Assembly (NCBI GenBank): GCA_016180845.1
Contig: JACPAK010000001.1
Coordinates: 225,707 to 289,706 of the forward strand
Reading direction: 5' to 3'
Origin: Deltaproteobacteria bacterium
GTDB taxonomy: Bacteria; UBA10199; JACPAL01
DNA length: 64,000 bases
Part shown: one piece after another, positions 1 to 28,035 of the stretch
How the letters are laid out: every line of letters starts with the position of its first letter
How positions within the stretch are numbered: position 1 is the stretch's first letter
Notes under the pieces: model-generated
The model's database searches: none
What the model saw: the letters and a program-made list of their open reading frames with translations, nothing else
Told to the model about the DNA's origin: nothing
Made by a program: the position numbers and the translations under genes

Positions 1-565
1 CATCCACTGGATCCGCGTCCTTCCAACCTTCGAGGGGACATTTCCCCATTTCCGGATGAGGCTCTTCCCGTTGCCCTGTCTTCACTGTGATAACCCCCCC
101 TGCACGAAGGTCTGTCCCGTGAGTGCAACGTATAAGAGTGAGGAGGGAATTGTCGGTCAGATTTTTGCCCGCTGTATCGGCTGTCGCTACTGCACGACCG
201 CCTGCCCCTATACCGTACGCGAGTTTAACTGGCGAAAACCGGTCTGGCCGGAGGAGATGAAACCAATCCGGAATCGGGATGTGTCGGTTCGTCCCAAGGG
301 GGTCGTCGAAAAGTGTACACTCTGCACCCACCGCCTCCAAAAGGGACGTGAAAAGGCCCGCGTGGAAAGGCGCGAAATGATCCCGGAGGACTACATACCT
401 GCTTGCGTGGAAATCTGTCCTTCACAGGCGATGATCTTCGGAGACCTCGACGATCCCGAGAGCGAGGTCTCAAAGCTGGTTCGAAGCCGTCGTGCCTTTC
501 GCCTGATGGAGGATCTCGGCACGGAACCCAAGGTGATCTATCTTTCGGAAGGAGGAGGCGACTAA
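1..565 (+). CDS. 4Fe-4S ferredoxin-type subunit of a molybdopterin-oxidoreductase-like complex (NrfC/PsrB/ActB family). C-terminal part only; the reading frame is open to the window edge.
   Basis: Several CxxCxxCxxxCP ferredoxin motifs (CLHCDNPPCTKVCP, CIGCRYCTTACP, CTLCTHR..., CVEICP). No stop codon upstream in frame back to position 2. An NrfD-like gene follows with a 1-nt gap. Confidence 0.7.
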   Translation, partial: IHWIRVLPTFEGTFPHFRMRLFPLPCLHCDNPPCTKVCPVSATYKSEEGIVGQIFARCIGCRYCTTACPYTVREFNWRKPVWPEEMKPIRNRDVSVRPKGVVEKCTLCTHRLQKGREKARVERREMIPEDYIPACVEICPSQAMIFGDLDDPESEVSKLVRSRRAFRLMEDLGTEPKVIYLSEGGGD

Positions 566-1894
566 ATGAAGGTCAGCGAACAGGATAGAATTCTTCTCAA
601 ACCTGTGGAACAGACCACAAAGCGATTTTGGATCACCGCCGGAATCCTCTTTTCCATCTGGTTTATCGGCTTCCTGGCCTATCTGAAACAATTCTACGGC
701 GGTCTTGGAGTCACCGGCCTTTCGCGACCAACCTATTGGGGGATCTATATTACCAATTTTGTTTTCTTCATCGGTATATCCCACGCAGGGACACTCATCT
801 CGGCAATCCTCCGAATTTCCCAAGCGGAGTGGAGACGGGCCATCACTCGATCGGCCGAGGTCATCACTGTCATGGTCCTCCTTTTTGGTGTGGGTAATAT
901 CCTAATCGATTTGGGTCGGCCGGATCGGATGCTGAACGTGCTCAAACATCCGCACTTCACCTCCCCCCTCCTGTGGGATGTCACAAGCATCACCTGCTAT
1001 CTGACCGCTTCGACGATCTATCTCTATCTCCCGCTGATCCCCGACATTGCACGACTCCGTGACCATGGAACCAAGTGGAAAGGATTTTATCGCCTGCTCG
1101 CCCTCGGCTGGCAAGAAACACCCCGGCAGAAGAAAATCCTTGAAAGATTGATTTCGATTATGGCGATTGTTGTCATCCCGATCGCGGTCTCCGTCCACAC
1201 TGTGGTGAGCTACGTCTTTTCCATGACGATTCAGCCGATGTGGCACTCTGCCATCTTTGGCCCCTACTTCGTCGTTGGGGCGATCTTCTCCGGAATCGCC
1301 GCCCTCATGATTGCGATGGCAATCATCCGCAAGGTCTACCATCTGGAGGAGTACTTGAAGGAGATCCATTTTAATTACCTCGGCATCCTCCTCCTTGTGA
1401 TGGCGCTCCTCTGGTTTTACTTCACCTTTTGCGAGTATCTGACCGTCTTCTACGGCAGTGAACCTCTGGAGATGCAGATCTTCATGTCCAAGATCACCGG
1501 CCCCTACGCCCTCTATTTCTGGACGATGGTCGCCTGCTGTTTCGTGATCCCGTTTGTGATCCTTGCCAACCGGAGGACGCGCACGGTCAAGGGGACGGTC
1601 ATTGCCTCCATTGCCGTAACGATCGGAATGTGGCTGGAGCGTTTCACGATCGTCGTCCCATCGCTCGTCAACCCACGTCTCCCTTATGCGAGGGGGACCT
1701 ATTATCCAACGCTCACTGAACTCGCAATCACCGCCGGATGTTTTGCCGCCTTTATCCTCCTGTATATGACCTTTACGAAGATCTTCCCGATCGTTTCTAT
1801 CTGGGAGATCGAGGAAGGGCGCGAGTCCTCTCTTCGAGAAGTTCATGAGAGGGTTAAGGGGTATCTTCCAGGAATGGGAGGGAAATCGGAATGA
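566..1894 (+). CDS. NrfD/PsrC/ActC-family polytopic membrane quinone-interacting subunit, about 10 TM helices
   Basis: 442-aa hydrophobic protein with an NrfD-like pattern, translationally coupled to the Fe-S subunit. Its length and roughly 10 helices resemble ACIII ActC/ActF. Confidence 0.7.
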   Translation: MKVSEQDRILLKPVEQTTKRFWITAGILFSIWFIGFLAYLKQFYGGLGVTGLSRPTYWGIYITNFVFFIGISHAGTLISAILRISQAEWRRAITRSAEVITVMVLLFGVGNILIDLGRPDRMLNVLKHPHFTSPLLWDVTSITCYLTASTIYLYLPLIPDIARLRDHGTKWKGFYRLLALGWQETPRQKKILERLISIMAIVVIPIAVSVHTVVSYVFSMTIQPMWHSAIFGPYFVVGAIFSGIAALMIAMAIIRKVYHLEEYLKEIHFNYLGILLLVMALLWFYFTFCEYLTVFYGSEPLEMQIFMSKITGPYALYFWTMVACCFVIPFVILANRRTRTVKGTVIASIAVTIGMWLERFTIVVPSLVNPRLPYARGTYYPTLTELAITAGCFAAFILLYMTFTKIFPIVSIWEIEEGRESSLREVHERVKGYLPGMGGKSE

Positions 1895-3024
1895 GGATTT
1901 TTCTCGTCAGCATGTTTTTTATTGTGGCATCTCACGGATTGGTGTCTGCACAACAAAATTTCCCGCAGTCTCCCGTGCAGGGAGACCGGCTCTTTTCTGA
2001 AAAAGGATGTTCGAAATGTCACTCAATCCTCGGTCAAGGAGGTCGTGTCGGTCATGACCTGGGGAAGATCAACTTGAAAGGCTCGCGTTTGGATGTTGCG
2101 AGCGCGATGTTAAACAACGCCCAAACGATGGGAAACAAGATGCGGGAGATGAAGATCATTCGACCCCATCTGACCGGCACCGAGATTGAGAGCCTGATCG
2201 CCTTTCTCTATTATGTAAACTATTTCGATGAACCGGGAAACTCGACAAGCGGAAAGAGTCTCTTCAAGGATCGCCAATGTATCCGTTGCCATACCGATCC
2301 CTCTTCATTCCCGCGAGGGATGACGCCGATTTATCTTGCCAAGACACTCTGGAATCACGGCCCCCGGATGTGGACGCAGATGTCACGGCAAGGAATCCCT
2401 TGGCCACGGTTTGAGGGAATGGAGATGATGGACCTCGTCGCCTTCCTGAGGGAAACGGCACGGACTGAGTCAGTGGCGATGTATGGATCCCCCGGAAACC
2501 CGAATGAGGGGAAAAAGGTCTTTCGGAGCAAGGGGTGCCCCCAGTGCCACGGCGGTCATGACGACAGAACCGTACCGAATTTGGCGGATCCAACCCTTGG
2601 ACTGCAGGTGAGCCTTACTCAAACAGTCTCCCGACTCTGGAACCATGCCCCGCAAATGTTCTCACGTTTCAGTGAAAAGGGTCTGGAGGCGCCTCACTTC
2701 ACCGAAAGGGAGATCGCCGACCTCGTCGCCTATATCTACTTTCTCAACTATTTTGATTCCCCGCCAGATTTAACAGCCGGGCGAAAGCTCTTTGCAGAAA
2801 AACAATGCAGTACCTGTCACTCGCTCGGTGGAGGAATCCAGGGGGCTGGTCCCGATCTTTCGGTCAGTCAAAAATCCTCCTCGTCAATCGATATGGTGGC
2901 AGCGATGTGGAATCACACCCCCTTCATGCATTCAGTCATGCAGGAAAAAGAGATCCCCTGGCCTCGATTTGACAGGGGGGAACTAAATAATCTTTTGGGC
3001 TATATTCAGTCCCTGAAAAAATAA
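1891..3024 (+). CDS. Tetraheme cytochrome c made of four tandem class-I mono-heme domains, with a signal peptide
   Basis: Four CxxCH motifs (CSKCH, CIRCH, CPQCH, CSTCH), each followed by a conserved WNH.P.M / EI..L.A(Y/F) repeat about 90 aa long. N-terminal signal peptide. ATGA start/stop overlap with the upstream gene. Confidence 0.75.
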   Translation: MRIFLVSMFFIVASHGLVSAQQNFPQSPVQGDRLFSEKGCSKCHSILGQGGRVGHDLGKINLKGSRLDVASAMLNNAQTMGNKMREMKIIRPHLTGTEIESLIAFLYYVNYFDEPGNSTSGKSLFKDRQCIRCHTDPSSFPRGMTPIYLAKTLWNHGPRMWTQMSRQGIPWPRFEGMEMMDLVAFLRETARTESVAMYGSPGNPNEGKKVFRSKGCPQCHGGHDDRTVPNLADPTLGLQVSLTQTVSRLWNHAPQMFSRFSEKGLEAPHFTEREIADLVAYIYFLNYFDSPPDLTAGRKLFAEKQCSTCHSLGGGIQGAGPDLSVSQKSSSSIDMVAAMWNHTPFMHSVMQEKEIPWPRFDRGELNNLLGYIQSLKK

Positions 3025-3032
3025 TGGCTGAA

Positions 3033-3329
3033 TTATTGTGCTGGCGTTCCTGGCTCCGCAGGAGCTTCAATCACCGGATGATGCCACCCCTTCATCTTAT
3101 CGCGATCGCAGCAACCTTTGATCCCCAGATAGGCGCTGCAGAGGATCGAAAGAATCGAGGCGATGGTCACAAGACCACCGATGATCTTTCCAGTTTTTTT
3201 ACAGAAAAACCCTTCGCCACAGGCCTTGTTCAGGAGCAGGACACCTGAGACCAAGGCGATGAACTGAAGGGCCAAAGCGGCATGCAGATGAAGATGCGAA
3301 CCGTGCATACAAGCCATATGTTCCATCAT
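3033..3329 (-). CDS. Small His/Cys-rich two-TM membrane protein; last gene of the cytochrome operon
   Basis: ATG at 3329 preceded by an AAAGGGGGA Shine-Dalgarno. Sequence MMEHMACMHGSHLHLH followed by two hydrophobic helices. The ORF-track start is an upstream GTG. Confidence 0.45.
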   Translation of the reverse strand: MMEHMACMHGSHLHLHAALALQFIALVSGVLLLNKACGEGFFCKKTGKIIGGLVTIASILSILCSAYLGIKGCCDRDKMKGWHHPVIEAPAEPGTPAQ

Positions 3330-3389
3330 AGATTGTCCCCCTTTTGGTTTGGATTCTATTATCACAAATATTAAAGGAGTCGACAGAAT

Positions 3390-3677
3390 TTATGGCGCCC
3401 CATTCGTTCCATGACAAGCGGCACAACCAGAAACCCCTTCTTGAAGGGCATGATCGTGTACCACCTCAATATCCACAAGCCCGCCGGTACGATCGATCAA
3501 GTGGATGTTATCCAGATTATGACAGGTGGTGCAGTCGCTCCGTCCCCAACCGATCTCATGCTCCGATTCTGTAAGAGCAAGCCCTTCCGGTGAATCCAAC
3601 AGGTTTCCGTAATTTTCCCCCTGATTGACGACACTCCCGCAGGAGATGAAGAACAACAAACCGAAGATTATTATCAT
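3390..3677 (-). CDS. Diheme cytochrome c lipoprotein
   Basis: Signal peptide with an LFFISC lipobox-like Cys, then CTTCH and CAACH heme motifs. ATGA overlap with the upstream heptaheme gene. Confidence 0.7.
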   Translation of the reverse strand: MIIIFGLLFFISCGSVVNQGENYGNLLDSPEGLALTESEHEIGWGRSDCTTCHNLDNIHLIDRTGGLVDIEVVHDHALQEGVSGCAACHGTNGAP

Positions 3678-4228
3678 CGTTTAGAACTCCCTCTTCCTGA
3701 ATGACACTCCTGACAGTAATTGATTGTATGACAGGCATCACACTTCCTCGGATTCGCGCGCGCCTCGACCGAATGAAAAAAACGGAAGTTTCGACGATGC
3801 ATCCGTTGCTGAACGGTATCCCGTCGGCTGTGACAGTCGACACAAAACCGTTTATTTGTGTGACAGGTTTCACACTCCTTCGGATTCTGTTTGGCAGAGA
3901 TCTGGTGTCTCGCCTTCCAATCGAGCCGATGACTCTTCGGCTTCGGTGGTCCCTCGAGATGACAGGTCACGCACGGCTTTTTGACATCGAGGATTGGCTT
4001 CGGGCTGTTGTGGCAAAGATGACATCCTTCCTTGTTGACCTTGTTCCGATCACCAAAGGACTCTGGATCGGCATGGCAGGTCTCGCAGGCAACCGACGCC
4101 GCCTCAAAAATCCCGGTATGCATCTCGTGATCGTAGAGATCAAAGGGGTGTTTTTTCTTCGCCTCAACCTTCATCGGAATCAAAAACAGGAGGCTTAGCG
4201 CAAAAATGATTTTATAGGATCGACCCAT
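3674..4228 (-). CDS. Periplasmic heptaheme cytochrome c
   Basis: Signal peptide followed by seven CxxCH motifs (CETCH, CHLCH, CVTCH, CETCH, CVDCH, CDACH, CQECH) in about 160 mature residues. Confidence 0.8.
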   Translation of the reverse strand: MGRSYKIIFALSLLFLIPMKVEAKKKHPFDLYDHEMHTGIFEAASVACETCHADPESFGDRNKVNKEGCHLCHNSPKPILDVKKPCVTCHLEGPPKPKSHRLDWKARHQISAKQNPKECETCHTNKRFCVDCHSRRDTVQQRMHRRNFRFFHSVEARANPRKCDACHTINYCQECHSGRGSSKR

Positions 4229-5489
4229 AGCGGTACTCCAATTTTAGTGATCCCCTCACATCCCGTTCCAAAAGATTGTTCCGATTGTACTCCCCACCGA
4301 TAGAAAGCCGGAGGTTGTGCGGAAACTCATAACCTGTCCAGACAATCGTCGAAAAGGCGCTGTCATTATCACTCGTAATCTTGTCGTACGTGGCATAATC
4401 AAACGACAATTCTCCGTATCCCTTTTTCAGGAGTGTCTTGTAGACAAAAAAACGGATCCCATGGACATCGCCACCGAAACTCTTTGCAAAAGAATATTGA
4501 GGGCCAAAATCGAGCTCAAGATTTTCAAGAGAAAAAGGGAAACCTATTTCGAGCAGATGGGCCCGCCGATGATCCGCCTCGCGAACCTCCATCCATTGGT
4601 AGGAATAACTTTGGGTAAGGTCGAGAAAATTTTTAATGAGTATCCAGTTCGAAGAAAACCGACCGGTGATTAGTTCCCCTTCGGAAAAAAGACTCAAGAT
4701 CGACCGCCGTGTCGACTCCCGATTCGCATTGAAATAATTCCCTTCGATCCCGATCGAAACAATAGAGAAAGGAGCCATATCAACGCCAAGGGTCCCCGTC
4801 TCTAGTGTCTTCGATCCGGTCTCATACTCAACAAGTCCTGAAATGAGCGGCCTCATCGATCCGGAAAAGAGGTAGGAGAGTGATGAACCGACCCGGATCT
4901 CGTCGTTTCTCCCCAGATCGGTCTCTCCCCAATCATTTTTCTGCCAGGCGGTTGATAATCGCGCCTGAAATCCTGATCCATTTTGCCAATCCAGAAAAAG
5001 CCCGGAGAGGAGTTGGTCATGATGGTGAAAATCCCCCTCTTCCACGCGTCTCGGAATTCCACCGTAGGTTCCGATACGAAAATTCTCTGTCGGATTGAGT
5101 GTTAACTGCAACCCATCGATAATCCCTGTCGAAAAACCGGGATTTAAAAATTGTCGACCAAAATCGATCTGAAACGATTCACGAGGCCTGACATGGAGAA
5201 CTGTTTGATAGAGATCATAATCATCCAAGGAACGATCGAGATCCCGGAAGAAGCGCATATCTGATTCGCCAGAAAATCTTCCGTCCGGCCTTCTCAGTCC
5301 CATACCCAGATAGCCATTGAGGGGGATCTCCGTCTCGTTTTTATCATTCTGACGAACTTGACTCAAAAGAGTTGTATTCAGATGGAACGGACTTCCCCAA
5401 ACAGGGGCTGAGAAGAGAAAAAGGGAGATGAATAATAAGGCACGCTCAACCACGTTATTCAAACCCCTCTGTCGTGAATGTCCATACAT
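4212..5489 (-). CDS. Outer-membrane beta-barrel protein, a candidate porin of a porin-cytochrome complex
   Basis: A signal peptide (RALLFISLFLFSAPVWG) follows an internal ATG (M53 of the ORF). About 420 residues of alternating amphipathic beta-strand pattern, and the protein ends in Y-R-Y-G-S-I-L. It sits between the giant and the heptaheme cytochromes. The start could instead be the M40 ATG at 5528. Confidence 0.6.
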   Translation of the reverse strand: MYGHSRQRGLNNVVERALLFISLFLFSAPVWGSPFHLNTTLLSQVRQNDKNETEIPLNGYLGMGLRRPDGRFSGESDMRFFRDLDRSLDDYDLYQTVLHVRPRESFQIDFGRQFLNPGFSTGIIDGLQLTLNPTENFRIGTYGGIPRRVEEGDFHHHDQLLSGLFLDWQNGSGFQARLSTAWQKNDWGETDLGRNDEIRVGSSLSYLFSGSMRPLISGLVEYETGSKTLETGTLGVDMAPFSIVSIGIEGNYFNANRESTRRSILSLFSEGELITGRFSSNWILIKNFLDLTQSYSYQWMEVREADHRRAHLLEIGFPFSLENLELDFGPQYSFAKSFGGDVHGIRFFVYKTLLKKGYGELSFDYATYDKITSDNDSAFSTIVWTGYEFPHNLRLSIGGEYNRNNLLERDVRGSLKLEYRYGSIL

Positions 5490-8400
5490 GATTTGTCGCC
5501 AATCGATTTCCGGCAAGATCTTGTGCATTCGTTGTGACTGTTGCCCGATAGACCGTCTCCTCACGAAGTGGCCGGGCATTGGTGGCAATCGTAAAATCAA
5601 CCGCCTGGCATGTCGCCGTCCGGCAATGGACGTTTCCACTGACACTTAACCACTCCCATCTCCGGGTTCTACTATTCCAATTCCTTCTTGAAAGGGTGAA
5701 GACGCCGGAAGACTCGACACTCGCCCGAATCATCGCCTCATTAAAATTAACTGTGATGATTGTGGTCGATGTCAAAACATCAGTCGCGCCGTTCGTGGGT
5801 ACCGTCGAATTCACAATCGGCCGAGTCGTGTCTGGGGTCAGGGTCGTAAAGGTCCAGCGATAATCTGTCGCTAGCGGCGTGCCGCCCCAGTCTGTCACCA
5901 CCGTGGTAATCCTTCCTCGATATTGGGTGTTCGGTTGCAGCGGGGTCTCCGGTGAAAAGGTCGCCGTCAGACACCAGTCGGCACTGCAAGCGACACGCCC
6001 TGCCACCCGACTTCCATCCGAAACCTTTTCCACAACAAAACTGTTTTCGACTGGAGGCGCTATTGTGCTGCGCAACATCGGCTCACTGAATGTAATTCTG
6101 ATGGTTGTCGGCGAGAAGGGTGTTCCCAACGCAACTCCCGTCGCCCCATTCGTCGGTATCGTTGAGGAAACGGCCGGTGGACCACTAGCAACCTGGTCAT
6201 TCCCAGGGGGATTGCAGTCAGGGAGTTCCGGTGGGAAGGGACGACTGCTGCTGTGACAGACACCGCCACATGTGCTCTCTGTTCGATAAGAGCGGTTCCC
6301 ATTGGTATGGCAGGAACCGTCGCTCCCACAGCCGCCTCTGGCAACGCTATCAATATTGTTATCGAGTAAGTAGAGCACGTGACCGAAGTTGGCAGCCGTT
6401 CGGGAACCACAGGTCGAACTGACGACCGGTTCCCAATTGTAAGAAGTGGTCCGTGCCGTTGGCGGATCTCCGCTTGTGACGATTTGCTCATAACCGACAT
6501 GGGGATAGTTCTGGTGACACATATAACAATAGGATCGGGAGACGAGTGTCGCACGTGTCTGTGTCTCATTGAAGGCAGTGGGAGAACCGTCATGACATCC
6601 GCCGCAATCCGCCTCACCCCAAGTGGCTGACGTGAAGCGACTTGAATAGGACACACCATGCCCCGATCCCCGCCACCACGTTGATGATGAATGGGGATAA
6701 CTCGGGTGACAGGTGTAACAGGAGATTGTCGAGATCCCCCCTCCGTAATCGTCCCCGTGACAACTTCGACACCCAACCCGGCTGGCATTGAACCTATCTC
6801 CGTGACGGGCGCTACTACTGCCCGTAACCCAATCCTGATCCTCAGAAACATCAGGCGACCGCAGATGCGGGTAGTTCGGATGGCAGGCAGCAGAACCGCA
6901 GGAGGTTGCGCGTCCATCGGGGCCTGCACCGAAATTCAAATGACACCGTGTGCAGCTACTCCTTAAACCCCGAACACCGTCCAAATAGGCGGTCGTATGC
7001 TCCCCTCCCTGATCGGTCTTCCAGTCCGTAACAAGTTGATGCGGATAGTTTTCGTGACACCCTGAACCGGAACAGGATCGGCCGGAATTACCACCGGCAT
7101 AGTTGGTTCCATGACAGAGCGAGCACCTGTTAAACGAATCGGGGAAATCATTATCCTGTTGTTCCAGATACTCCGCCGCATGGGGGCTTGGAAAATTTGC
7201 TGCCCGGCTCCGCTCAACATCCCAACAAGTCGGTTCATCAGCGCCGTCACACTCCTGCTCCGTCCAGGTCTCTGTCCCCACCTCATATTCCGTCCAGCCG
7301 GACCGATGCGGGAAATTGGTATGACAGGAATAGCAATTACGCCCATCAAATTCCCTCTGAAAATCGGTCCCATGACAGCCGGCACAACGCAACTGACGAT
7401 TCGCATCGCTGATCGCGAACGGCCCGTGCTCCGTCGTTTCCCAGTTCGGCAATAATTCATGCGGGTAGAGATGGCACTGCAGGCAGGGACGCGCCGCAGC
7501 GGTCCCCGCTATCTCCCGGTTATGACAGGTCATACAATTGTTAAACCCATCCCTCAAGACAACAGCACCATGTCCTGCGGCCCCACGCCAGTTGTCCTGA
7601 CTGTGGGTCTCCGGGAAGCCACTGTGGCATTCATTACAATTCGCCCCACGTGTCCGCTGAAGGTCCGGGATCAGATTCACCCCGTGACACCGCGCAGTCC
7701 CGCAGGTTGCACGTCCGTTTTCCTGGACAAAGTCGCCATGGAGTTGCGGCTGCCCTTGCTCACGACGCCATCCCTCAGGATGCGGAAAGGGGTTATGGCA
7801 CTCCCCGCAGCGTCGATTCCCTCGTGGAGACGAATCAGAGGTCAGGGAATGACAAGTCCTGCATTCGTTACGCATCAGGACAGGAAGCGCATAGGATCCA
7901 TGTCCTTCAAATTCACGCCATCCGGAGGGATGAGAACCGGCAAATGAGGGATGGCAGGAGAAACAGTTTTGTCCCTTGAGAACCTTTTTGAGATCGGCTC
8001 CATGACAGAGCTGGCATTTTTCTGTCTCCCCCTGATAGGTCACACGAACACGCTCTCCATGCCCTCCTGAAAAAGGGATCCAAGTAGCACTCGCCGGATG
8101 GGGATAATCGGCATGACAGGTGGTGCAATTTTTCCCGGCAACTAGTCTCTCTCCCCGCTCTCCATGACACCCCTGACAGGCGGTGCGACCAAGCTCCAAT
8201 GAGGTGGGACCATGCTGCGTCTGCCACCCTTCCCCATGCGGATAGAGGGTATGACAACGATTGCAGGCGATCTGCGAAAGTCCTCCATTCAGATCAGCTC
8301 CATGGCATTGTGTCGTACATCCTTCCCTCCCATTATCCAGAACATAAGGGGCATGCTTGGTCTTTTCTCCCCAACCGACTTCATGGGGATAGATCGCATG

Positions 8401-9009
8401 ACACTTGAAACAACTGGTCCCGCTCGACCCCCCTTTCAGATCCTCTCCATGACAAGACCGGCAGAGATCCTTCCCTTCCCCTTTCGCAAACTCTCCGTGA
8501 AAATTAGCCCCCTTCCATTCGGAAGAATGGGGATAGACTTCGTGACACTTTGTGCAGGAAACCTTGGTCAATCCGCCCGAGAGATCGGTCCCGTGACATT
8601 GAGTCGCACATGAAAGGCGGTCATTGGTTCTGACCCAAGTCCCGTGTCTCTCTTTCGATTTCCAGTCAGCCTCATGCGGGTAAAGGGGATGACAGCCCTG
8701 ACATGTCGGTGTTCTCTCGTTGGTCGTCGAACTGACCTTATGACACTTGAGACAGGCCGGAAGTCCGTACCGCTCCTTGCCACTCCCATGAGAGGCTGGT
8801 TCTTTCCACCCCTGCGGATGGGGAAAAAGGGGAAGAGGTTCTGCGATATTTCCGTCCGGAGAAATGCTGGGGGTAAGATCAGAAACATCACGGGAATGGG
8901 GCTTCTTTTTGGCACATCCAAAAAGAAGAAAAAGAAGAAAAAAAAAGACTAACCCTCTGAAAAAGACACCCTGACGCCAAGATCGTGGCAAGCGAAGACC
9001 CTCCATCAA
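5455..9009 (-). CDS. Giant multiheme cytochrome c lipoprotein, about 1184 aa and roughly 30 heme sites, with two C-terminal bacterial Ig-like domains
   Basis: Lipoprotein signal peptide (…FLLFLLFGC). About 23 canonical CxxCH motifs plus about 7 CX3-5CH variants. Recurring CxxCHxxYPHxxxW module. The C-terminal 230 aa contain two TxPTNGATxV…F(S/N)EPM Ig-like repeats. Confidence 0.85.
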   Translation of the reverse strand: MMEGLRLPRSWRQGVFFRGLVFFFLLFLLFGCAKKKPHSRDVSDLTPSISPDGNIAEPLPLFPHPQGWKEPASHGSGKERYGLPACLKCHKVSSTTNERTPTCQGCHPLYPHEADWKSKERHGTWVRTNDRLSCATQCHGTDLSGGLTKVSCTKCHEVYPHSSEWKGANFHGEFAKGEGKDLCRSCHGEDLKGGSSGTSCFKCHAIYPHEVGWGEKTKHAPYVLDNGREGCTTQCHGADLNGGLSQIACNRCHTLYPHGEGWQTQHGPTSLELGRTACQGCHGERGERLVAGKNCTTCHADYPHPASATWIPFSGGHGERVRVTYQGETEKCQLCHGADLKKVLKGQNCFSCHPSFAGSHPSGWREFEGHGSYALPVLMRNECRTCHSLTSDSSPRGNRRCGECHNPFPHPEGWRREQGQPQLHGDFVQENGRATCGTARCHGVNLIPDLQRTRGANCNECHSGFPETHSQDNWRGAAGHGAVVLRDGFNNCMTCHNREIAGTAAARPCLQCHLYPHELLPNWETTEHGPFAISDANRQLRCAGCHGTDFQREFDGRNCYSCHTNFPHRSGWTEYEVGTETWTEQECDGADEPTCWDVERSRAANFPSPHAAEYLEQQDNDFPDSFNRCSLCHGTNYAGGNSGRSCSGSGCHENYPHQLVTDWKTDQGGEHTTAYLDGVRGLRSSCTRCHLNFGAGPDGRATSCGSAACHPNYPHLRSPDVSEDQDWVTGSSSARHGDRFNASRVGCRSCHGDDYGGGISTISCYTCHPSYPHSSSTWWRGSGHGVSYSSRFTSATWGEADCGGCHDGSPTAFNETQTRATLVSRSYCYMCHQNYPHVGYEQIVTSGDPPTARTTSYNWEPVVSSTCGSRTAANFGHVLYLLDNNIDSVARGGCGSDGSCHTNGNRSYRTESTCGGVCHSSSRPFPPELPDCNPPGNDQVASGPPAVSSTIPTNGATGVALGTPFSPTTIRITFSEPMLRSTIAPPVENSFVVEKVSDGSRVAGRVACSADWCLTATFSPETPLQPNTQYRGRITTVVTDWGGTPLATDYRWTFTTLTPDTTRPIVNSTVPTNGATDVLTSTTIITVNFNEAMIRASVESSGVFTLSRRNWNSRTRRWEWLSVSGNVHCRTATCQAVDFTIATNARPLREETVYRATVTTNAQDLAGNRLATNHVWTFTTEGFE

Positions 9010-9099
9010 TATTATCGTCCAATAAGGCCTTAGGTAGATATGATACAGATCATCCCTTCGTAGGGCAAAAAGGTTTACTTATCAAAAGGGGGTGATTTT

Positions 9100-9351: not shown

Positions 9352-9419
9352 CCTTGCGCAGTCCGAAACCTGATACCGATCATACCTCTTTTCCCTGAAT
9401 ACGCTGAGTATCCTCATTG

Positions 9420-10274
9420 ATGTATACAATATTGAAAAAAGAGGTCTTTTCCCCAACAACATTCCTTTGGGAGGTCTTGGCACCTGATATTGCTCATGCG
9501 GCAAGGGCAGGCCAGTTTGTCATGGTCCACCTCAACTCCTATGGGGAAAGGATCCCGCTCACCATCGCGGATTTTGATCGGGAAAAAGGAACGATCACGC
9601 TTGTCGTCAAGGTAGTCGGAAAAACGACCGAGGAGATGTCGACCTATGCTGAAGGAGCGACCTTTCTTGATCTGGTCGGACCGTTGGGGACACCAAGCCT
9701 GGTCGAGCCACTCAACCATGTCGTCCTCGTCGGGGGAGGGATCGGCATCGCCCCACTTTTGCCTATCCTGAGGGAATTCCGAGAGACCGGAAGTTATGTC
9801 ACCGTCATCGTCGGTTTCAGGACAATGGGAGAGATTTTCTGGAAAGCTCGATTTGAAAAACTCGCCCACCAACTCGTTTTGATGACCGAAGACGGTTCCT
9901 CAGGAGAAAAGGGGACGGTGATTGATGGTCTGAAAAAAATCCTTTCCGAGGAAACCCCGATTGAAGAGGTCCTCGCGATCGGCCCGATCGGAATGATGCA
10001 GGCGGTCGCCGAAACAACCCGCCCCTGGGAAATACCGACGTTCGTCTCGATGAATCCGATCATGGTGGATGGGATCGGAATGTGTGGTTCGTGTCGTGTG
10101 AAGGTTGGCGACAAAATTCTTTTTGCCTGTGTCGATGGACCGGACATGAATGGTCACCTGGTTGATTTCAAAGAACTGAAGACCCGGCAAATCCGATTCT
10201 TCAATGAAGAGCAAAGATGCCTGAAGGCCTATCATGAGAGGCAGCCTCCGCTCACCCAAGGAGGGTCGAGATGA
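9420..10274 (+). CDS. PyrK-like FAD/NAD(P)-binding 2Fe-2S oxidoreductase subunit (NfnA / sulfide dehydrogenase SudB family)
   Basis: Ferredoxin-NADP reductase fold with the C-terminal GMCGSCRV…FACVDGP 2Fe-2S motif. ATGA coupling to the downstream GltD-like gene. Confidence 0.75.
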   Translation: MYTILKKEVFSPTTFLWEVLAPDIAHAARAGQFVMVHLNSYGERIPLTIADFDREKGTITLVVKVVGKTTEEMSTYAEGATFLDLVGPLGTPSLVEPLNHVVLVGGGIGIAPLLPILREFRETGSYVTVIVGFRTMGEIFWKARFEKLAHQLVLMTEDGSSGEKGTVIDGLKKILSEETPIEEVLAIGPIGMMQAVAETTRPWEIPTFVSMNPIMVDGIGMCGSCRVKVGDKILFACVDGPDMNGHLVDFKELKTRQIRFFNEEQRCLKAYHERQPPLTQGGSR

Positions 10275-11845
10275 ATCGGGAAACAAAAAAATTAAACCCG
10301 AACCGGATCCCGATGCCGGAACTCCCGATCGATGCCCGACGTCTCCTCTTTGAAGAGGTCAACTGCGGTTATACGTTCGAAGAGGCCCAGGAAGAGGCGA
10401 CGCGGTGTCTCTTCTGCAAAAAACCGTTTTGTATCCAGGGCTGTCCCGTTGAGATTGATATCCCCGGCTTTATCAAAAAGATCGTCGAGGGGGATCTTCA
10501 TAGGGCCTATTCGATTCTCAGGGAATCCAACCCCCTGCCTGCCGTCTGCGGCCGTGTCTGTCCTCAAGAGACCCAATGCGAGGCACGATGTGTCGTTGGC
10601 AAGAAAGGAACTCCCGTAGCGATCGGGTGGCTCGAGCGATTTGTCGGAGATTGGGCGCTCCAGCAAGGCGAAGCACTCTCTGGTTTTTCTGCGTCGTCAG
10701 GTGCCTCCGCGGCGACCTTTAGGGCGCTAGCAGCCAATGAACCTTCTCGCACAAAACGCGAGTTTTCATTGTCTTCTAGCACTCCTAAAGGGCCCGCCGC
10801 TCCTGGCAATGCCGACTCGAAAATTCCAGAGAGTGCTTCGCCGCTGAAAATTGCCATCATCGGCTCCGGTCCCTCCGGTCTTGCCTGCGCCCAGGATCTG
10901 GCAACAGCCGGCATCGATGTCACTATTTTTGAGGCACTGCATGAAGCGGGTGGCGTCCTCTCCTATGGAATCCCCCCCTTTCGACTCCCGCGTTCGATCG
11001 TCGCGAAGGAGATCGATCAGCTCAAACATCTGGGAGTTCATTTTGAACTTAACAAGGTCATCGGAAAAATTTTCACGATTGAAGAACTTCTTCGGGAAAA
11101 AGATTTTCAGGCAGTCTTTATCGGCACCGGCGCCGGTCTCCCCAAATTTTTAGGGCTCCCGGGAGAACAACTGAATGGGGTGATGAGCGCTAATGAATTC
11201 CTGACGCGTCTTAACCTGATGGGGGGATATCGGAAGGCCGATACGCCGGTCGGGATGGGGAATCAGGTCACCGTCATCGGGGCCGGCAATACCGCCCTCG
11301 ACTCTGCGAGGATCGCCCTGAGACTCGGTGCTACAGTCACTGTCGTTTATCGCCGGACAGAGAGTGAGTCCCCTGCCCGTGCGGAGGAGCTCCGCCATGC
11401 GAAGGAGGAGGGGGTCCGGTTCGAATGGCTCACCAATCCTTTAGGATATCTCGGTGACGATCATCACTGTGTGCGAACGATGCGTTGCCTCCGAATGGCC
11501 TTGGGAGAACCGGATGAATCGGGCCGACGTTCCCCCCATCCTCTCCCCGGCACGGAATTTGAGATCCCCACAGATACCGTGATCTACGCCTTGGGAACCG
11601 TCGCCAATCCGATCATCGGCCGAAGCACCTTGGGCCTTAAAACAAACCGCTGGGGGTATATCGAAGTCGATCCGGAAACCGGCATGACCTCTCTTCCCGG
11701 TGTCTTTGCGGGTGGTGATATTGTGACCGGAGCGGCGACAGTCATCCAGGCGCTTGGAGCCGGAAGAAAGGCGGCGCGGGGAATTTTGCGTTACCTGAAT
11801 AAAGAGAATGTGAAGGAGGTGAGTTATGCCGTCGCAATGCCCTAA
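10271..11845 (+). CDS. Glutamate-synthase-small-subunit-like NAD(P)H oxidoreductase (NfnB/SudA/GltD family), carrying a roughly 60-aa low-complexity in-frame insertion
   Basis: N-terminal 2x[4Fe-4S] Cys motifs (CLFCKKPFCIQGCP, CGRVCPQETQCEARC). IAIIGSGPSGLACA dinucleotide-binding fold. C-terminal GGDIVTGAATVI. Confidence 0.8.
   Translation: MNRETKKLNPNRIPMPELPIDARRLLFEEVNCGYTFEEAQEEATRCLFCKKPFCIQGCPVEIDIPGFIKKIVEGDLHRAYSILRESNPLPAVCGRVCPQETQCEARCVVGKKGTPVAIGWLERFVGDWALQQGEALSGFSASSGASAATFRALAANEPSRTKREFSLSSSTPKGPAAPGNADSKIPESASPLKIAIIGSGPSGLACAQDLATAGIDVTIFEALHEAGGVLSYGIPPFRLPRSIVAKEIDQLKHLGVHFELNKVIGKIFTIEELLREKDFQAVFIGTGAGLPKFLGLPGEQLNGVMSANEFLTRLNLMGGYRKADTPVGMGNQVTVIGAGNTALDSARIALRLGATVTVVYRRTESESPARAEELRHAKEEGVRFEWLTNPLGYLGDDHHCVRTMRCLRMALGEPDESGRRSPHPLPGTEFEIPTDTVIYALGTVANPIIGRSTLGLKTNRWGYIEVDPETGMTSLPGVFAGGDIVTGAATVIQALGAGRKAARGILRYLNKENVKEVSYAVAMP
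10667..10842. repeat. A 176-bp imperfect palindrome inserted in frame into the NfnB-like gene
   Basis: Perfect 17-bp terminal inverted repeats: ggcgaagcactctctgg … ccagagagtgcttcgcc. Internal arms are also reverse-complementary (tttagggcgctagcagccaatgaa vs ttcattgtcttctagcactcctaaa). It encodes an S/A/P-rich linker absent from homologues. Confidence 0.7.
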
Positions 11846-12443
11846 ATGCCGGCAAGTCCTCGATGAAGATTATATCTGTTGCGCCGACATCCAGCTCCAG
11901 TGGAAATGTGTTGATTGTCATAAGCGTTCGATCGGCTTCGCCTTCCCCTTCGGTCGCTGTTCCCTCTGCGGCGGCAATCTGACACGCGTTGAACCTGTGA
12001 AAGAATTATCCAGAAATATCCAGCTCCTTCAGGAGGCGCTCCAGATTGAAATCACGAGCTCTCTTTTCTATCGTCGTCTCTCGGAAGCGGTCGACGATCC
12101 TGAAATCAGCGATTTTTTTGAGACCATGTCCGATTGGGAAAAGGAACATGCGCGTGAACTAAGTCAGAAATACCACCTGCATCTCGGCGAAGAGATGTTT
12201 CAGGACGACAACCTCCCACTGCCGTTTCCTTTTTTCGACGATCTTTCATTTTTCGCGGCAACAGGCAATCTCCGTCGTCTCTATGATTGTGGGATCTCTC
12301 TTGAGAAAAAAACGCTTCGTTTTTTTGAGGAAAAGGCACGCCAGATGCCAATGAGTCGTGAGAAAGAGCTGTATCAAGAACTCGCCGCTGAGGAGAGAGA
12401 CCATATCGCGCTTCTCGAATCAGAAAGGGACAAGAGGTGTTAA
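11826..12443 (+). CDS. Rubrerythrin/ferritin-like diiron protein with an N-terminal zinc-ribbon
   Basis: CPKC…C…CHK…CSLC zinc-ribbon, then ExxH motifs (EKEHAREL, ERDHIALL) typical of rubrerythrin-like four-helix-bundle diiron sites. Confidence 0.6.
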   Translation: MPSQCPKCRQVLDEDYICCADIQLQWKCVDCHKRSIGFAFPFGRCSLCGGNLTRVEPVKELSRNIQLLQEALQIEITSSLFYRRLSEAVDDPEISDFFETMSDWEKEHARELSQKYHLHLGEEMFQDDNLPLPFPFFDDLSFFAATGNLRRLYDCGISLEKKTLRFFEEKARQMPMSREKELYQELAAEERDHIALLESERDKRC

Positions 12444-13381
12444 TGTCAAAAGAACTCTTAAAAAAATTGGGAGCTGGGGAGACGATCGATGTTCGGGCTG
12501 ACGGGAAGGCAGGGAGTGGACTCGTGATGATCCTCCAGACCTTCGCCGAGGCGGTTTCCCTCAAGGGAGACTATCAGGTCCAGGAGTGGCCCTTTTTCAG
12601 TTCGGCCCGAAAAGGGGCGAATGTCCGCGGCTATCTCCGGATCGGGAAGGGACCAACATTTATCTCCTGCAAGGTGGATAAACCCCACCTCGCCCTGCTC
12701 GTTAGCGAAAAAACGGGGGAAGAACTCGACTTTGCGAGCGGCATGAATGAAGGAATCTATCTCATCAATAGTCCACGAAGCCCGGCAGAGACGGCAGACA
12801 GCTTCCACCTTCGAGGCCTCGTTTACACCATCCCGGGAGATCAGTTGGGGGAAAAATATCTCGGTCGCCCGCTCCCGAACATCCCGCTCTTAGCCGCCAT
12901 GCAGACGGCGCTCCCGCTCGTCTCCTCGACAGAGATACTCAAGGCCCTCGAAGATATCGGAAGGAAGAGGCGGCTCCCTGAGAAGATGATCGAGGCCAAC
13001 AAGACCTGTTTTCTCGAATCCCTTAAACTGATCCGGAGGGAGGAGATCCCGGGAGACCCTTCATGGAAACATCCACTCCCCCCGTTTGAGGGGTATCTCG
13101 ATTATCCGACAGGGGCCCAGAGCCGGCTTCGGACAAGTCTTTCAAACCAGACAGCGAACTACGCCCGGCCCGGGAGAAGGCTGGTCTTCCACGATCCGGA
13201 AAATCGCTGTAACGGCTGTAGTCTCTGCATCGTCAATTGTCCGGAGGGGATTATTCAATTTGAAAAGGATGAAAAGCAGGGTGTTCGCGTCACGGGAGCG
13301 AACATCGACCAATTCTGCAAACTTTGCCGTGAGTGTATTGAGGTCTGTCCCATCGATCTTTTTGAGGAGGTTGGATGCTGA
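12443..13381 (+). CDS. 2-oxoacid:ferredoxin oxidoreductase gamma-delta fusion subunit (POR/KOR/VOR family)
   Basis: N-terminal gamma-type domain, then C-terminal 2x[4Fe-4S] motifs (CNGCSLCIVNCP, CKLCRECIEVCP). Confidence 0.75.
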   Translation: MSKELLKKLGAGETIDVRADGKAGSGLVMILQTFAEAVSLKGDYQVQEWPFFSSARKGANVRGYLRIGKGPTFISCKVDKPHLALLVSEKTGEELDFASGMNEGIYLINSPRSPAETADSFHLRGLVYTIPGDQLGEKYLGRPLPNIPLLAAMQTALPLVSSTEILKALEDIGRKRRLPEKMIEANKTCFLESLKLIRREEIPGDPSWKHPLPPFEGYLDYPTGAQSRLRTSLSNQTANYARPGRRLVFHDPENRCNGCSLCIVNCPEGIIQFEKDEKQGVRVTGANIDQFCKLCRECIEVCPIDLFEEVGC

Positions 13382-13448
13382 TAAAGGCCCATCTGCTGCG
13401 TTACCTTGCATCTGGGACCTTTCTCAACATCCTTTTGGAGTGCCCAAG

Positions 13449-14759
13449 ATGACAAACCCAGCCGAAAAACTTTACGGTCGCTCCTTTCCAGGGATCATTG
13501 ATCTGGAAATGATTCGCAAATTACATCGACCTCTTTACCGGGAACGTCAAAGGGTCCAGAAGGATGGCAACGAGGCGGCAGCAATCGCGTCGCTCCAGTT
13601 CTGGAGGTCACCGATCTACGCTGGTTTTCCGATCACCCCCTCGACGAAATGGCTCGAGACGATCGCTGCCTCTGTAAACGGCGGTCGTTTTGTCATTGAA
13701 AGAAATGGCCAAAAGATCAGCACGAAACGGGTGAAACTCCTCGAGGCGGAGCATGCGGTTGCCGATTATCTCGCAGGGGCTGCTGCCGCCTGTCGCGAGC
13801 TGATCTTCATGACTGCCACTTCTTCTGTCGGTCTGGATCATATGACCGAGACGACACGTTCGCTTGGGGCCAGTGGGCTTGGAAATATCATGCTCATCAA
13901 TGTCTATCGAGCCACCGCCAATTATCCCCTCTGCATCGAAGGAGACCCTTCGGATACGCTGGCCCATCGGGATGACGGCTGGATCCAGGTGGTCTGCCGC
14001 GGGAAACAACAAATCTACGACACACTTCTCCAGCTTCCCTGCATCGGGATGCACCCTGATATCCTGATCCCGACAATGCCCGGCTTCTACGGAATCAAGG
14101 ACAGCCATCGCAGCGAACCGTTTTTTGTCGAACCGGATGAAAAGATCCATTCCTTTCAGGACAGTCTTTTGCCCGATCATTGCCATCTTCCCGGACTCAT
14201 CACAGGTGACACCTCCATGGGCAATTGTGTGACGAGCCCCTATTTTCAGGGATTCAAATGGGAACAGAGGCAGAGACTCGATCGTGTCTTTCACATCTTA
14301 AAAAGGACCTCAGCTGAATTTCAGCGGGAATTTGGTCGGCCGGGGATTGAACCGATCGAGACCTATTCCCTGGACGACTCCCCTCCGGTCATCCTCGTCG
14401 CCATGGGACCCGATACCACCACTGCATGGGAGGTACTTCGCCAGAAACGACAGGAGGGACAAAAAATCGGCCTCGTCGTGATCCGACTCCTCACTCCTTT
14501 TCCCCTCAATCTCGTCCGGCAGGCGCTTCGCTCCGCAGAAGCGGTGGGGGTTGTAAACAACGCCTTTCAATCAGAACGCGGGCATCTCACGGCGCTCGTG
14601 AGCGAGGCGGTCAACAATCTCCCGATAAAAACGGTCGGGTTCTTTACCGGCCTCGGCGCCGCCGACATCTCGACAGACTCATGGGAAAAGATGATCCGGC
14701 TGACGACGACCCTGAAAGAAGGGGGAAGCTGCTTCATCTATCGGGGGGAGGCGCTATGA
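13449..14759 (+). CDS. 2-oxoacid:ferredoxin oxidoreductase alpha subunit
   Basis: PorA/KorA-like sequence (YAGFPITPSTKWLE…). The ATG at 13449 follows the gamma-delta gene. The ORF-track N-terminal extension overlaps the upstream gene and is rejected. Confidence 0.75.
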   Translation: MTNPAEKLYGRSFPGIIDLEMIRKLHRPLYRERQRVQKDGNEAAAIASLQFWRSPIYAGFPITPSTKWLETIAASVNGGRFVIERNGQKISTKRVKLLEAEHAVADYLAGAAAACRELIFMTATSSVGLDHMTETTRSLGASGLGNIMLINVYRATANYPLCIEGDPSDTLAHRDDGWIQVVCRGKQQIYDTLLQLPCIGMHPDILIPTMPGFYGIKDSHRSEPFFVEPDEKIHSFQDSLLPDHCHLPGLITGDTSMGNCVTSPYFQGFKWEQRQRLDRVFHILKRTSAEFQREFGRPGIEPIETYSLDDSPPVILVAMGPDTTTAWEVLRQKRQEGQKIGLVVIRLLTPFPLNLVRQALRSAEAVGVVNNAFQSERGHLTALVSEAVNNLPIKTVGFFTGLGAADISTDSWEKMIRLTTTLKEGGSCFIYRGEAL

Positions 14760-15784: not shown

Positions 15785-15872
15785 CCTGATCCTCGTCATA
15801 CCCTCTTGTCCATGATTCACTCATAATGTTAAAGTTAAGTTTTGAAGAATACTGAAAAAAGGGAGGTGTCTT

Positions 15873-16475
15873 ATGGTGAAAGAAACCATTGTCGAACCGA
15901 CCGATGCCCTCATCCTAATCGACATCCAGAAAGACTTCTTTGAAGGGGGATTCTTCCCGGTCAAGGGGGCCGATGAGATCCTGAAGCCATTGCTCTCCGT
16001 CATGAGTCTCTTCCCTCTGATCGTCGCCACGCAGGACTGGCATTATATTGAACAGTTCACCCACCAGAAGGAGGGGGTTTACGAAACTGGACACTGCATT
16101 GAAAGGACCCCCGGGGCTGATCTCCATCCCCTCCTCGCCAATCAACATCTCGACCTCACGATTCGGAGGGGACCAAAAAAGGATGGGGAGTCATTCTCGG
16201 TCTTTGAACAAAGCGAGCTTGCAACCTGGCTGCTTCGAAAGAGGTGCCGCCGGATCTTCGTGATGGGATTCACGACCGAGTATGGTGTGAAAGAAACCGT
16301 TCTTGACGGTCTCAAACGGGGATTCAAGGTCTTCGTCATTGAGGAAGGGGTAAAATCCCGAGGCTCCGCTACAGAAGGAGCTAAGGCGCTGGACGAGATG
16401 AAACGGGCCGGGGCTCATCTGGTCTCCGAGGAAGAGCTTGTCCCGGAAAAGGGTCGCGTGACTGTCGGGGAATAG
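15873..16475 (+). CDS. Isochorismatase-family cysteine hydrolase (nicotinamidase PncA-like)
   Basis: ALILIDIQKDF motif and a catalytic Cys in the RIFVMGFTTEYGV region. Confidence 0.65.
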   Translation: MVKETIVEPTDALILIDIQKDFFEGGFFPVKGADEILKPLLSVMSLFPLIVATQDWHYIEQFTHQKEGVYETGHCIERTPGADLHPLLANQHLDLTIRRGPKKDGESFSVFEQSELATWLLRKRCRRIFVMGFTTEYGVKETVLDGLKRGFKVFVIEEGVKSRGSATEGAKALDEMKRAGAHLVSEEELVPEKGRVTVGE

Positions 16476-16477
16476 AT

Positions 16478-16870: not shown

Positions 16871-16976
16871 AAAAAATATTCTAAGATGAACCATACCGAA
16901 ATCACCTGACCACAATCATGTGATCGGCTGATTCGAATCATTCTCTCGAGACACGACTTCTCGATAATGGACCTTG

Positions 16977-26088: not shown

Positions 26089-26090
26089 AG

Positions 26091-28033: not shown

Positions 28034-28035
28034 AC

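Follow-up and report, generated by a model that had tools for sequence, protein, structure and literature searches.

A 30-site multihaem lipoprotein cytochrome built from a two-haem repeat and encoded beside a predicted outer-membrane barrel in an uncultured Deltaproteobacteria bacterium

A 64,000 nt stretch of contig JACPAK010000001.1 (positions 225,707 to 289,706 of assembly GCA_016180845.1, a metagenome-assembled genome (MAG) labelled Deltaproteobacteria bacterium) was analysed here and is called the window below. An earlier note on this DNA, made from the letters alone, had drawn attention to a giant cytochrome gene near its left end. We find that the product is a very large multihaem c-type cytochrome assembled from 15 tandem two-haem units, carrying 30 candidate haem attachment sites, a lipoprotein-type signal peptide and two C-terminal Ig-like domains. 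The same four genes, encoding the giant cytochrome, a protein predicted to fold as an outer-membrane β-barrel and two small cytochromes, recur together at other loci. We consider it probable that the giant cytochrome is the large outer component of a porin-cytochrome-type conduit for extracellular electron transfer.

A two-haem unit repeated 15 times

A motif count of the giant cytochrome gives 30 C...CH sites, of which 23 are CxxCH and seven have a wider spacing. Specifically, there are three CX3CH sites (CATQCH, CTTQCH and CGGVCH), three CX4CH sites (CGTARCH, CSGSGCH and CGSAACH) and one CX5CH site (CGSDGSCH). The approximate counts of the earlier note are therefore exact. By comparison, about 0.2 CxxCH motifs would be expected by chance from the composition of the reading frame (69 Cys and 63 His in 1184 residues). 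The sites occupy a haem region of ~840 residues, or ~28 residues per site, that is divided into units with a period of mostly 47 to 61 residues; units 10 and 14 are longer and carry inserts, and unit 15 is degenerate. That all 15 tandem units can be aligned bears out the proposal that this cytochrome was made from a repeated module.

Each unit contains an A site of the form C..CH-G-x-D-L-x-G-G and a B site of the form C..CH-x-x-Y-P-H-x3-W-x4-5-H-G, and the paired sites lie ~12 residues apart. In an alignment of 13 units the two Cys and the His of both sites, together with the Trp, are invariant. A leader with the pattern FPH..W..HG precedes the first site, and therefore the natural register of the repeat is YPH..W..HG followed by A and then B. 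Nine of the 15 units contain canonical motifs only. Of the remaining six, units 2, 4 and 8 have an extended A site, units 11 and 12 have an extended B site, and unit 15 is extended at both. The earlier description, in which extended motifs regularly alternated with canonical ones, is thus not borne out; what alternates is the A and B type of site.

Apart from a T-rich run in the signal-peptide region, the gene contains no tandem repeat at the DNA level, and its units are closer to their positional counterparts in other proteins than to their own neighbours. For both reasons the array is old and positionally stable, and a recent repeat expansion in the DNA or concerted evolution was rejected as its origin. 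Whole units have been gained or lost between proteins of the family.

Extended motifs and site density across the family

A search of 5.8 billion proteins returned 61 homologous clusters, whose proteins have between 14 and 56 CH sites; in nearly all of them CxxCH occurs together with CX3CH or CX4CH. Conservation of the extended spacings was read from an alignment of 58 family members (57 homologues). The CX3CH spacing of sites 3 and 7 is kept in 51 of 55 and 41 of 50 homologues, respectively, and the CX4CH spacing of site 15 in 41 of 54, which for these three positions amounts to 76-93%. Site 30, also CX3CH, has the same spacing in 26 of 53. Lineage-specific spacings are seen at sites 22 and 24, where the CX4CH of our protein is shared by 8 of 47 and 3 of 33 homologues. 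Site 29 is extended in most homologues, most commonly as TCGGGTxGSCH, a CX7CH motif found in 30 of 53, and it takes the form CX5CH in the giant cytochrome. Sites 29 and 30 (6253-6330) also lie within a conserved C-terminal cap, present in the homologues as well, with the pattern ...TCGGGTxGSCH-x-NG-x-RS...LCG-x-YCH.

Because the spacings are kept at the same positions in homologues, the extended motifs are genuine, and the concern that they might be unconserved or mere noise can be set aside. CX3CH and CX4CH are, in addition, established haem-binding motifs (PMC11492766). The same observations bear on the idea that the extended motifs, or the pattern as a whole, reflect an assembly or sequencing artefact, or that they are Cys/His sites for another metal, as in zinc ribbons. 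This idea is already largely refuted, and we regard it as the least probable of the alternatives considered here. The frame is intact over 3.5 kb, the spacings are kept by position in dozens of independent assemblies, the Cys-His at the motif ends is invariant, cytochrome c maturation genes lie beside one homologue (locus L001), and two Pfam cytochrome families score above their cut-offs. These are Cytochrome_C7 (PF14522; 63.3 bits against 24.8, seven stretches) and Cytochrom_c3_2 (PF14537; 63.0 bits against 25, six stretches). Zinc binding could draw on the comparison of the whole protein with PDB sequences, where the top match is a DnaJ zinc-finger region; all matches in that search were non-significant, including this one (E 0.026) and cytochrome c3 (E 0.18).

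The earlier note also held the haem density to be exceptional, and the comparison does not support this for either the density or the number of haem sites. The ratio of ~28 residues per site recurs throughout the family, lying between 25 and 31 in every one of the 61 homologues, and family maxima are 56 sites and 32 matched repeat units. MtrA-type wires have ~33 residues per site, and the extracellular cytochromes of PCC3 clusters have a median of 34 sites and as many as 63 (PMC5566968).

A profile of the 48-residue unit, built from 13 units and searched against 1.84 billion representative proteins, matched 1124 proteins at E <= 1e-3, 595 at E <= 1e-10 and 221 at E <= 1e-30. Judged by these matches the repeat family is real, moderately sized and uncurated, with the giant cytochrome as a large member though not the largest. 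Among curated models, Pfam Paired_CXXCH_1 (PF09699) reached 18.4 bits, under its cut-off of 20.6 (E 0.0018, one stretch), and NCBIfam offered no family for the giant cytochrome at E <= 1. The Geobacter CxxxxCH...CXXCH domain GSu_C4xC__C2xCH, which we take to be PF09698 / TIGR01904, gave no match at E <= 1 in Pfam or NCBIfam, the presence of its model in either being unverified. Against the PDB the unit profile found weak matches, the best being the c3-type 16-haem Hmc (2e84, E 5e-5) over the paired-site part only, and the unit signature (G-x-D-L; Y-P-H-x3-W-x4-5-H-G) was common to no solved structure in that search. Modelled with AlphaFold2 (AF2), the haem region reaches an overall pLDDT of 69 and a pTM of 0.34, with pLDDT rising to 81-91 over the first ~6 units.

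One spare histidine for every site

Residues 58-871 contain exactly 30 His outside the motifs, two ahead of each A/B pair. At 29 of these 30 positions the residue is conserved in at least 79% of homologues, and at 26 in at least 94%; the exception is H511 (23%). The earlier note had proposed the YPH His as a plausible distal haem ligand, and this suggestion is strengthened by the alignment, in which it is 79-100% conserved at 13 of 14 positions, H511 being the remaining one. A second conserved His in each unit, that of the HG element, had been missed, and the two together supply one spare His per site. Met, by comparison, occurs three times in the whole haem region. The match of 30 spare His to 30 sites points to bis-His electron-transfer haems rather than to a catalytic centre. 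Furthermore, the partner His of the extended sites are kept, which argues that these sites too are occupied by haem.

The stoichiometry bears directly on the possibility that the protein is a catalytic multihaem enzyme, for instance one that reduces or oxidises nitrogen or sulfur compounds. Some multihaem enzymes do have unusual motifs at their active haems, for example the CX15CH of MccA (PMC11492766), and MccA appeared as a weak match in the unit-profile search (E 0.017). Since each site has a matching conserved spare His, there is no obvious open coordination position, and a catalytic haem that has one is disfavoured. The giant cytochrome also contains no lysine-type motif, matches no enzyme family in Pfam or NCBIfam and has a uniform repeat architecture. 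We therefore regard catalysis as very improbable, only slightly less so than an artefact.

The gene, its start and its lipoprotein signal

The earlier note placed the gene at 5455-9009. Read on the plus strand this interval is riddled with stops, and that reading was rejected; the gene lies on the minus strand, where an uninterrupted frame of 1184 codons opens with TTG at 9009. The intact frame stands, and the strand and start are corrected here. A TTG at 8991 is the likely start, because GGAGG lies 8 nt upstream of it and because it is the start used in the NCBI record. A protein-database search found the resulting product to be identical to the NCBI MAG protein P0001 (1178 aa).

The signal peptide ends in a lipobox whose Cys26 is almost invariant over the 58 aligned family members, and a lipobox-like motif is present in most homologues. 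Its FFFLLFLLF core is encoded by a T/C-rich run that includes a T9 homopolymer (8938-8946, on the coding minus strand), which is in frame in the assembly. Judging from its sequence and its place early in the gene for a probable surface protein, the T9 run could slip and switch the gene off. A promoter-like site precedes the start by ~50 nt; the consensus scan that found it returned no more sites than in shuffled sequence.

An exchangeable Ig-like tail

The final ~240 residues contain no haem site. They match Pfam Big_5 (PF13205) in two stretches with 125 bits against a cut-off of 23.6 (E 2.6e-36), and the two copies are internal duplicates of each other, with an alignment score of 170 compared with 31 +/- 5 for shuffles. 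Thus, the proposed pair of C-terminal Ig-like domains is confirmed and low-complexity sequence is ruled out as an explanation. The Big_5 tail is carried by 9 of the 61 homologues; most of the others end a few residues past their last site, and a few have different C-terminal modules. Because of this distribution, the tail is an exchangeable accessory rather than a defining feature of the family. The earlier suggestion of a surface-exposed binding or adhesion role holds in part. A surface role is plausible given the LFGC lipobox and the overlap with an outer-membrane barrel gene in a conserved cluster, and the tail on which the suggestion was based does not define the family.

A recurring set of four genes

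Downstream of the giant cytochrome gene, and on the same strand, lie genes for the barrel protein, a seven-haem cytochrome and a two-haem lipoprotein (Table 1). The barrel gene begins, with a TTG, before the cytochrome gene has ended, so that the two share 8 nt, and similar overlaps of start and stop codons through the cluster suggest that the four genes are co-translated. The AF2 model of the barrel protein (pLDDT 84.5, pTM 0.72) has 22 strands. A Foldseek search of the PDB with this model first returned the 24-strand ushers FimD and PapC (E 1e-10, TMq 0.60), followed by porins, OprD and AlgE. By sequence, the barrel matches no Pfam family at E <= 1e-3 and no NCBIfam family; the seven-haem protein gave nothing significant in a PDB sequence search, and NCBIfam contained nothing for any of the three partner proteins.

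Table 1. Coordinates of the features discussed, in window positions
Feature	Position	Strand	Remarks
30-site multihaem lipoprotein cytochrome, coding sequence	5455..8991	-	1178 aa; stop TAA 5455-5457
Lipoprotein-type signal peptide, lipobox LFGC (Cys26)	8914..8991	-	Read from sequence (...FLLFLLFGC)
Haem region, residues 56-913	6253..8826	-	Leader FPH..W..HG, then 15 tandem two-haem units, 30 C(x2-5)CH sites
Big_5 Ig-like domain 1, residues ~937-1050	5842..6183	-	Pfam Big_5; duplicate of domain 2
Big_5 Ig-like domain 2, residues ~1060-1178	5458..5814	-	Pfam Big_5
Promoter-like site TTGCCC-17-TATCAT	9040..9068	-	~50 nt upstream of start; consensus scan
Outer-membrane β-barrel protein (predicted), 416 aa	4212..5462	-	Signal helix and 22 long strands (AF2)
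Seven-haem periplasmic cytochrome (putative), 184 aa, Sec signal	3674..4228	-	Seven CxxCH; overlaps barrel gene by 17 nt
Two-haem small lipoprotein, 95 aa	3390..3677	-	FISC lipobox, two CxxCH; start overlaps preceding stop (ATGA)
Small hydrophobic protein, 110 aa	3033..3365	-	Occasional fifth cluster member
Possible inner-membrane entry point: NrfC-like Fe-S protein, NrfD-type subunit and 377-aa cytochrome	56..3024	+	Pfam Fer4_11, NrfD, Cytochrom_C

A barrel gene adjoins a gene for a YPH-type cytochrome in all 11 of the other loci that hold a close barrel homologue. The four-gene set recurs at loci L002, L007 and L008, on the contig of protein P0002 and at L009-L015, the last seven being all the close barrel loci of a genome-collection scan. 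Some of these records (L007, L015 and P0002) are cut short or are without some members; the P0002 set was judged from gene sizes, and the L015 sequence breaks off within the barrel gene, so that no small cytochromes are seen there. L008 has the genes in a permuted order. The seven-haem cytochrome stands beside the barrel in nine sequenced loci with 51-86% identity, and eight other loci have the two-haem lipoprotein at 57-66% identity over 80-97 aa, the copy in L007 ending after 21 aa. The 110-aa hydrophobic protein, which has no family match, adjoins the set in L008 (54% identity) and L010 (66%) and is absent from most loci. The notion that every family member works in a barrel complex was dropped, as the giant cytochromes at L001 and L003-L006 have no adjoining barrel.

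More distant barrel homologues (23-28% identity) occur in Desulfurobacteriaceae MAGs, with a seven-haem partner in three of four loci and a different, 24-site cytochrome. The loci L016-L018 (~10001-18900; from Desulfurobacteriaceae and other MAGs) hold a barrel (24-28% identity), a seven-haem lipoprotein, cytochromes with seven and eight sites and then a ~885-aa cytochrome with 24 sites that is without the YPH unit. From these loci, the barrel and seven-haem core seems to be common to several phyla, with large partners that differ.

Two further observations concern the homologous loci. In L008, a second barrel-like gene (443 aa), a cytochrome gene (214 aa) and a gene for a large cytochrome with a PKD-like domain (921 aa) occupy 12247-17019 beside the first set, which suggests that paralogous conduits can sit in tandem. 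In L001, genes for cytochrome c maturation (CcmF/H, CcmB and CcmC-like, within 1-5157) lie a few kb upstream of the giant cytochrome gene; none was seen within the 64-kb window.

Fast divergence of the giant cytochrome

Locus L007 is syntenic with the window, and its flanking genes (oxoacid:ferredoxin oxidoreductase subunits, isochorismatase, NfnA-like and GltD-like proteins) are 73-90% identical to ours. The seven-haem cytochrome is 86% identical between the two loci and the barrel 70% (51-86% and 40-70%, respectively, across loci). The two-haem lipoprotein is not comparable in L007, where the contig ends, and is 57-66% identical across loci. In contrast, the giant cytochrome (5455-8991 compared with 8001-10661 of L007) is 35% identical, within a range of 30-38% across loci, and its L007 counterpart has 27 sites and no Big_5 tail. 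Judged from these identities, the L007 contrast reflects either very fast divergence or replacement of the gene by transfer at a fixed locus. Fast divergence and turnover of cytochromes for extracellular electron transfer have been described in Geobacter and Shewanella (PMC12977616), and the fast divergence seen here fits what would be expected of an exposed component.

Other genes in the window

Convergent with the cytochrome cluster is a module with an Fe-S/NrfD gene pair (56-1894), whose NrfC-like gene is probably cut by the window start, and a gene for a 377-aa cytochrome (1891-3024) with four CxxCH sites in class I-type domains. Six loci (L008, L009 and L012-L015) likewise have an Fe-S and NrfD pair within 3-9 kb of the set. 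In all of these except L008, a four-haem reading frame whose N-terminus is hydrophobic by eye stands beside the pair. With low confidence, we suggest that the module may be a quinone-linked entry point of the pathway.

Directly upstream of the giant cytochrome gene and divergent from it, the region 9417-15784 (plus strand) encodes NfnA-like and GltD-like flavoproteins, a rubrerythrin and a multi-subunit 2-oxoacid:ferredoxin oxidoreductase, and is syntenic in L007. It is followed on the same strand (16974-24240) by a cluster for a molybdoenzyme of the type II DMSO-reductase family, similar to nitrate/nitrite oxidoreductases. The 1150-aa alpha subunit scores 336 bits against a subfamily cut-off of 985, well below it. 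Also encoded in the cluster are a beta subunit, a gamma subunit that has a c-type cytochrome domain fused to it, a hemerythrin and a NarJ-like chaperone. Molybdenum cofactor genes come next (24629-28941). Four large reading frames in the window have no Pfam family at E <= 1e-5, namely 32048-34855 (minus strand, 935 aa), 47887-49374 (plus, 495 aa), 49444-51972 (plus, 842 aa) and 53412-55835 (plus, 807 aa).

A proposed electron-transfer conduit

The conduit that we consider probable would work as follows. The giant protein would be exported and anchored to lipid at Cys26. Up to 30 c-type haems would then be held covalently in its haem region of ~840 residues, whose 15 two-haem units are related to cytochrome c3/c7, each haem being ligated by its motif His and by a YPH or HG His, so that all would be six-coordinate, low-spin electron-transfer centres. 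These haems would form one continuous chain with a length on the order of 30 nm, an estimate made because a published protein with 27 sites is predicted to extend ~350 Å (PMC11492766). Electrons would cross between the periplasm and the chain through the predicted 22-strand barrel, which would hold the seven-haem cytochrome, with the two-haem lipoprotein as a putative adaptor. A connection to the inner membrane may be provided by the nearby NrfCD-type quinone module. At the opposite end from the lipid anchor, the Big_5 pair would hold the tip to a mineral, a polymer or another cell.

Several points weigh against this assignment. The source is an uncultured MAG, and the conduit is a prediction from its genes. 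Neither secretion genes nor genes for surface-lipoprotein export were noted within the window. Searches by sequence did not place the barrel in the MtrB/PioB family, and its top 50 Foldseek matches did not include MtrB. The family as a whole is not tied to the barrel, which the five more distant giant-cytochrome homologues mentioned above lack nearby. Finally, the known haem-binding motifs listed in PMC11492766 include neither CX5CH nor CX7CH, and attachment of haem at site 29 (CX5CH here, CX7CH in most homologues) would be without precedent there.

Some of the same points would be expected if the giant cytochrome were instead a periplasmic cable or electron store, which is the main rival to a surface location. 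Here the lipoprotein would sit on the inner face of the outer membrane and span or fill the periplasm, its chain would link the quinone module to the barrel complex or buffer electrons, and its Ig-like domains would bind a periplasmic or cell-wall partner. Such a location would agree with the absence of visible surface-export machinery from the window and with the many homologues that have neither a barrel nearby nor an Ig-like tail, and very large periplasmic multihaem cytochromes have been proposed in PCC3 clusters (PMC5566968). However, the set already encodes a dedicated soluble seven-haem periplasmic cytochrome, and the much faster divergence of the giant protein (35% identity, compared with 70-86% for its partners) is what an exposed component would be expected to show. 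Big_5 domains, moreover, typically belong to surface proteins. In systems such as Mtr and Geobacter Pcc, which are not known to be related to it in sequence, the large lipoprotein cytochrome is the external one (PMC7096707; general scheme in PMC5566968). On balance we hold a periplasmic role to be unlikely, though much less so than catalysis or an artefact.

With the surface conduit retained as the preferred reading, the direction of flow can be weighed. We tentatively favour electron export to insoluble acceptors over uptake from Fe(II), Mn(II) or minerals. Inward flow through the same conduit, with Fe(II), Mn(II), a partner cell or reduced minerals as donor and the respiratory chain as recipient in a lithotrophic oxidation, is a real possibility, if the less probable one. 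Partners of high potential are encoded nearby, namely the class I-type cytochrome with four CxxCH sites (1891-3024) and the molybdoenzyme, which is of a periplasmic, nitrate/nitrite-oxidoreductase-like type with a cytochrome c-fused gamma subunit (16974-23135). Genes for a cytochrome bd oxidase and for bc-type complexes occur in homologous loci. In the window itself, neither Cyc2 nor a multicopper oxidase was seen. Chains of haems with bis-His ligation throughout serve both directions, as in MtrA and MtoA, so that the ligation pattern does not discriminate between them. PCC3 and PCC4 clusters have been found in iron oxidisers (PMC5566968).

If the proposed conduit is correct, this lineage has a complete route for electron export or uptake whose parts escape current annotation. 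NCBI labels the cytochrome an 'Ig-like domain-containing protein' and the barrel 'hypothetical', and there is no Pfam or NCBIfam model for the repeat unit, the barrel or the small cytochromes. In groundwater, a marker for such metal or mineral respiration could be made from the 48-residue unit profile. The modular design, with a fixed two-haem unit, one spare His per haem and gain or loss of whole units, would also offer a test bed for tuning the length of haem wires and for the non-standard motifs that maturation machinery accepts.

Comparison with known systems

By analogy, the conduit appears to work like Geobacter Pcc, Shewanella Mtr and the PCC3 clusters, and it is a demonstrable member of none of them. 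In Geobacter Pcc (OmbB-OmaB-OmcB), a periplasmic multihaem cytochrome, a barrel of ~20 strands and a multihaem outer-membrane lipoprotein are encoded together (PMC5566968, PMC7096707). The counterparts here would be the seven-haem protein, the predicted 22-strand barrel and the 30-site lipoprotein, a likeness in the list of parts; no source name of a homologue refers to OmbB, OmaB or OmcB, and no Pfam or NCBIfam model of them was returned. The external cytochrome has 30 sites here, whereas OmcB has 12, and this set differs further in its uniform two-haem repeat, its Ig-like tail and the extra two-haem lipoprotein.

The PCC3 clusters described by He et al. (2017) similarly combine a porin with an extracellular cytochrome of many sites (median 34) and internal repeats. 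That cytochrome has a low ratio of residues to haems, is rich in small residues and was read as a molecular wire, and CX3CH and CX4CH were counted as sites in the same study (PMC5566968). In contrast, the periplasmic cytochrome of PCC3 has a median of 21 sites (PMC5566968), compared with seven here. PCC3 clusters also contain a conserved inner-membrane protein of ~300 aa with five helices and two WX3HX13H motifs (PMC5566968); none occurs in or next to the cluster in our window, and the 110-aa membrane protein is without the motif. The hosts differ as well, being iron-oxidising and other Proteobacteria in the published description on which this comparison is based, and MAGs labelled 'Deltaproteobacteria bacterium' by NCBI in the present case.

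The logic of MtrCAB, MtoAB and PioAB, in which a periplasmic multihaem cytochrome is sheathed by a barrel and touches a lipoprotein cytochrome on the outside (PMC7096707), is also the one proposed here. The components are different. The barrel has no MtrB_PioB match in Pfam or NCBIfam; its periplasmic partner has seven sites, is not a decahaem protein and matches neither MtrA nor DmsE. The MtrB barrel, which the Foldseek search did not return among its top 50 matches, has 26 strands, compared with the 22 predicted here. The giant protein has no OmcA/MtrC family match, and faint matches to MtrC domains II/IV are seen in some homologues.

The Pfam matches assign the haem region to the cytochrome c3/c7 superfamily, of which the 16-haem Hmc and the poly-c7 proteins are also members. 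Shared features are the Cytochrome_C7 and Cytochrom_c3_2 scores above cut-off, sites paired ~12 residues apart, an upstream aromatic-Pro-His element, CX4CH sites, bis-His ligation (predicted here) and ~27-28 residues per haem. In our protein, however, the unit has two haems and not three or four, carries its own signature, is iterated 15 times and is predicted to be lipid-anchored.

Giant repetitive extracellular cytochromes and CX3CH or CX4CH sites are already documented, and in kind the present protein is not surprising. We raise only tentatively that the set represents an undescribed class of conduit in uncultured groundwater bacteria, with a lipid-tethered 30-haem cable of ~30 nm, exchangeable tip domains, a shared barrel and seven-haem core and a new terminal haem motif. 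Were this so, the core of 22-strand barrel and seven-haem protein would be shared even with Desulfurobacteriaceae, and the CX5CH/CX7CH terminal site may be a new motif for covalent haem binding. A published likeness for the cable itself is the 27-site wire cytochrome of Geobacter metallireducens, compared here by description. Its gene cluster is reported to lie outside a porin-cytochrome operon, unlike the set in our window. In other respects the two would be alike, the G. metallireducens protein being an extracellular, very long haem array in a single chain, predicted to reach ~350 Å with iron-iron distances below 15 Å (PMC11492766).

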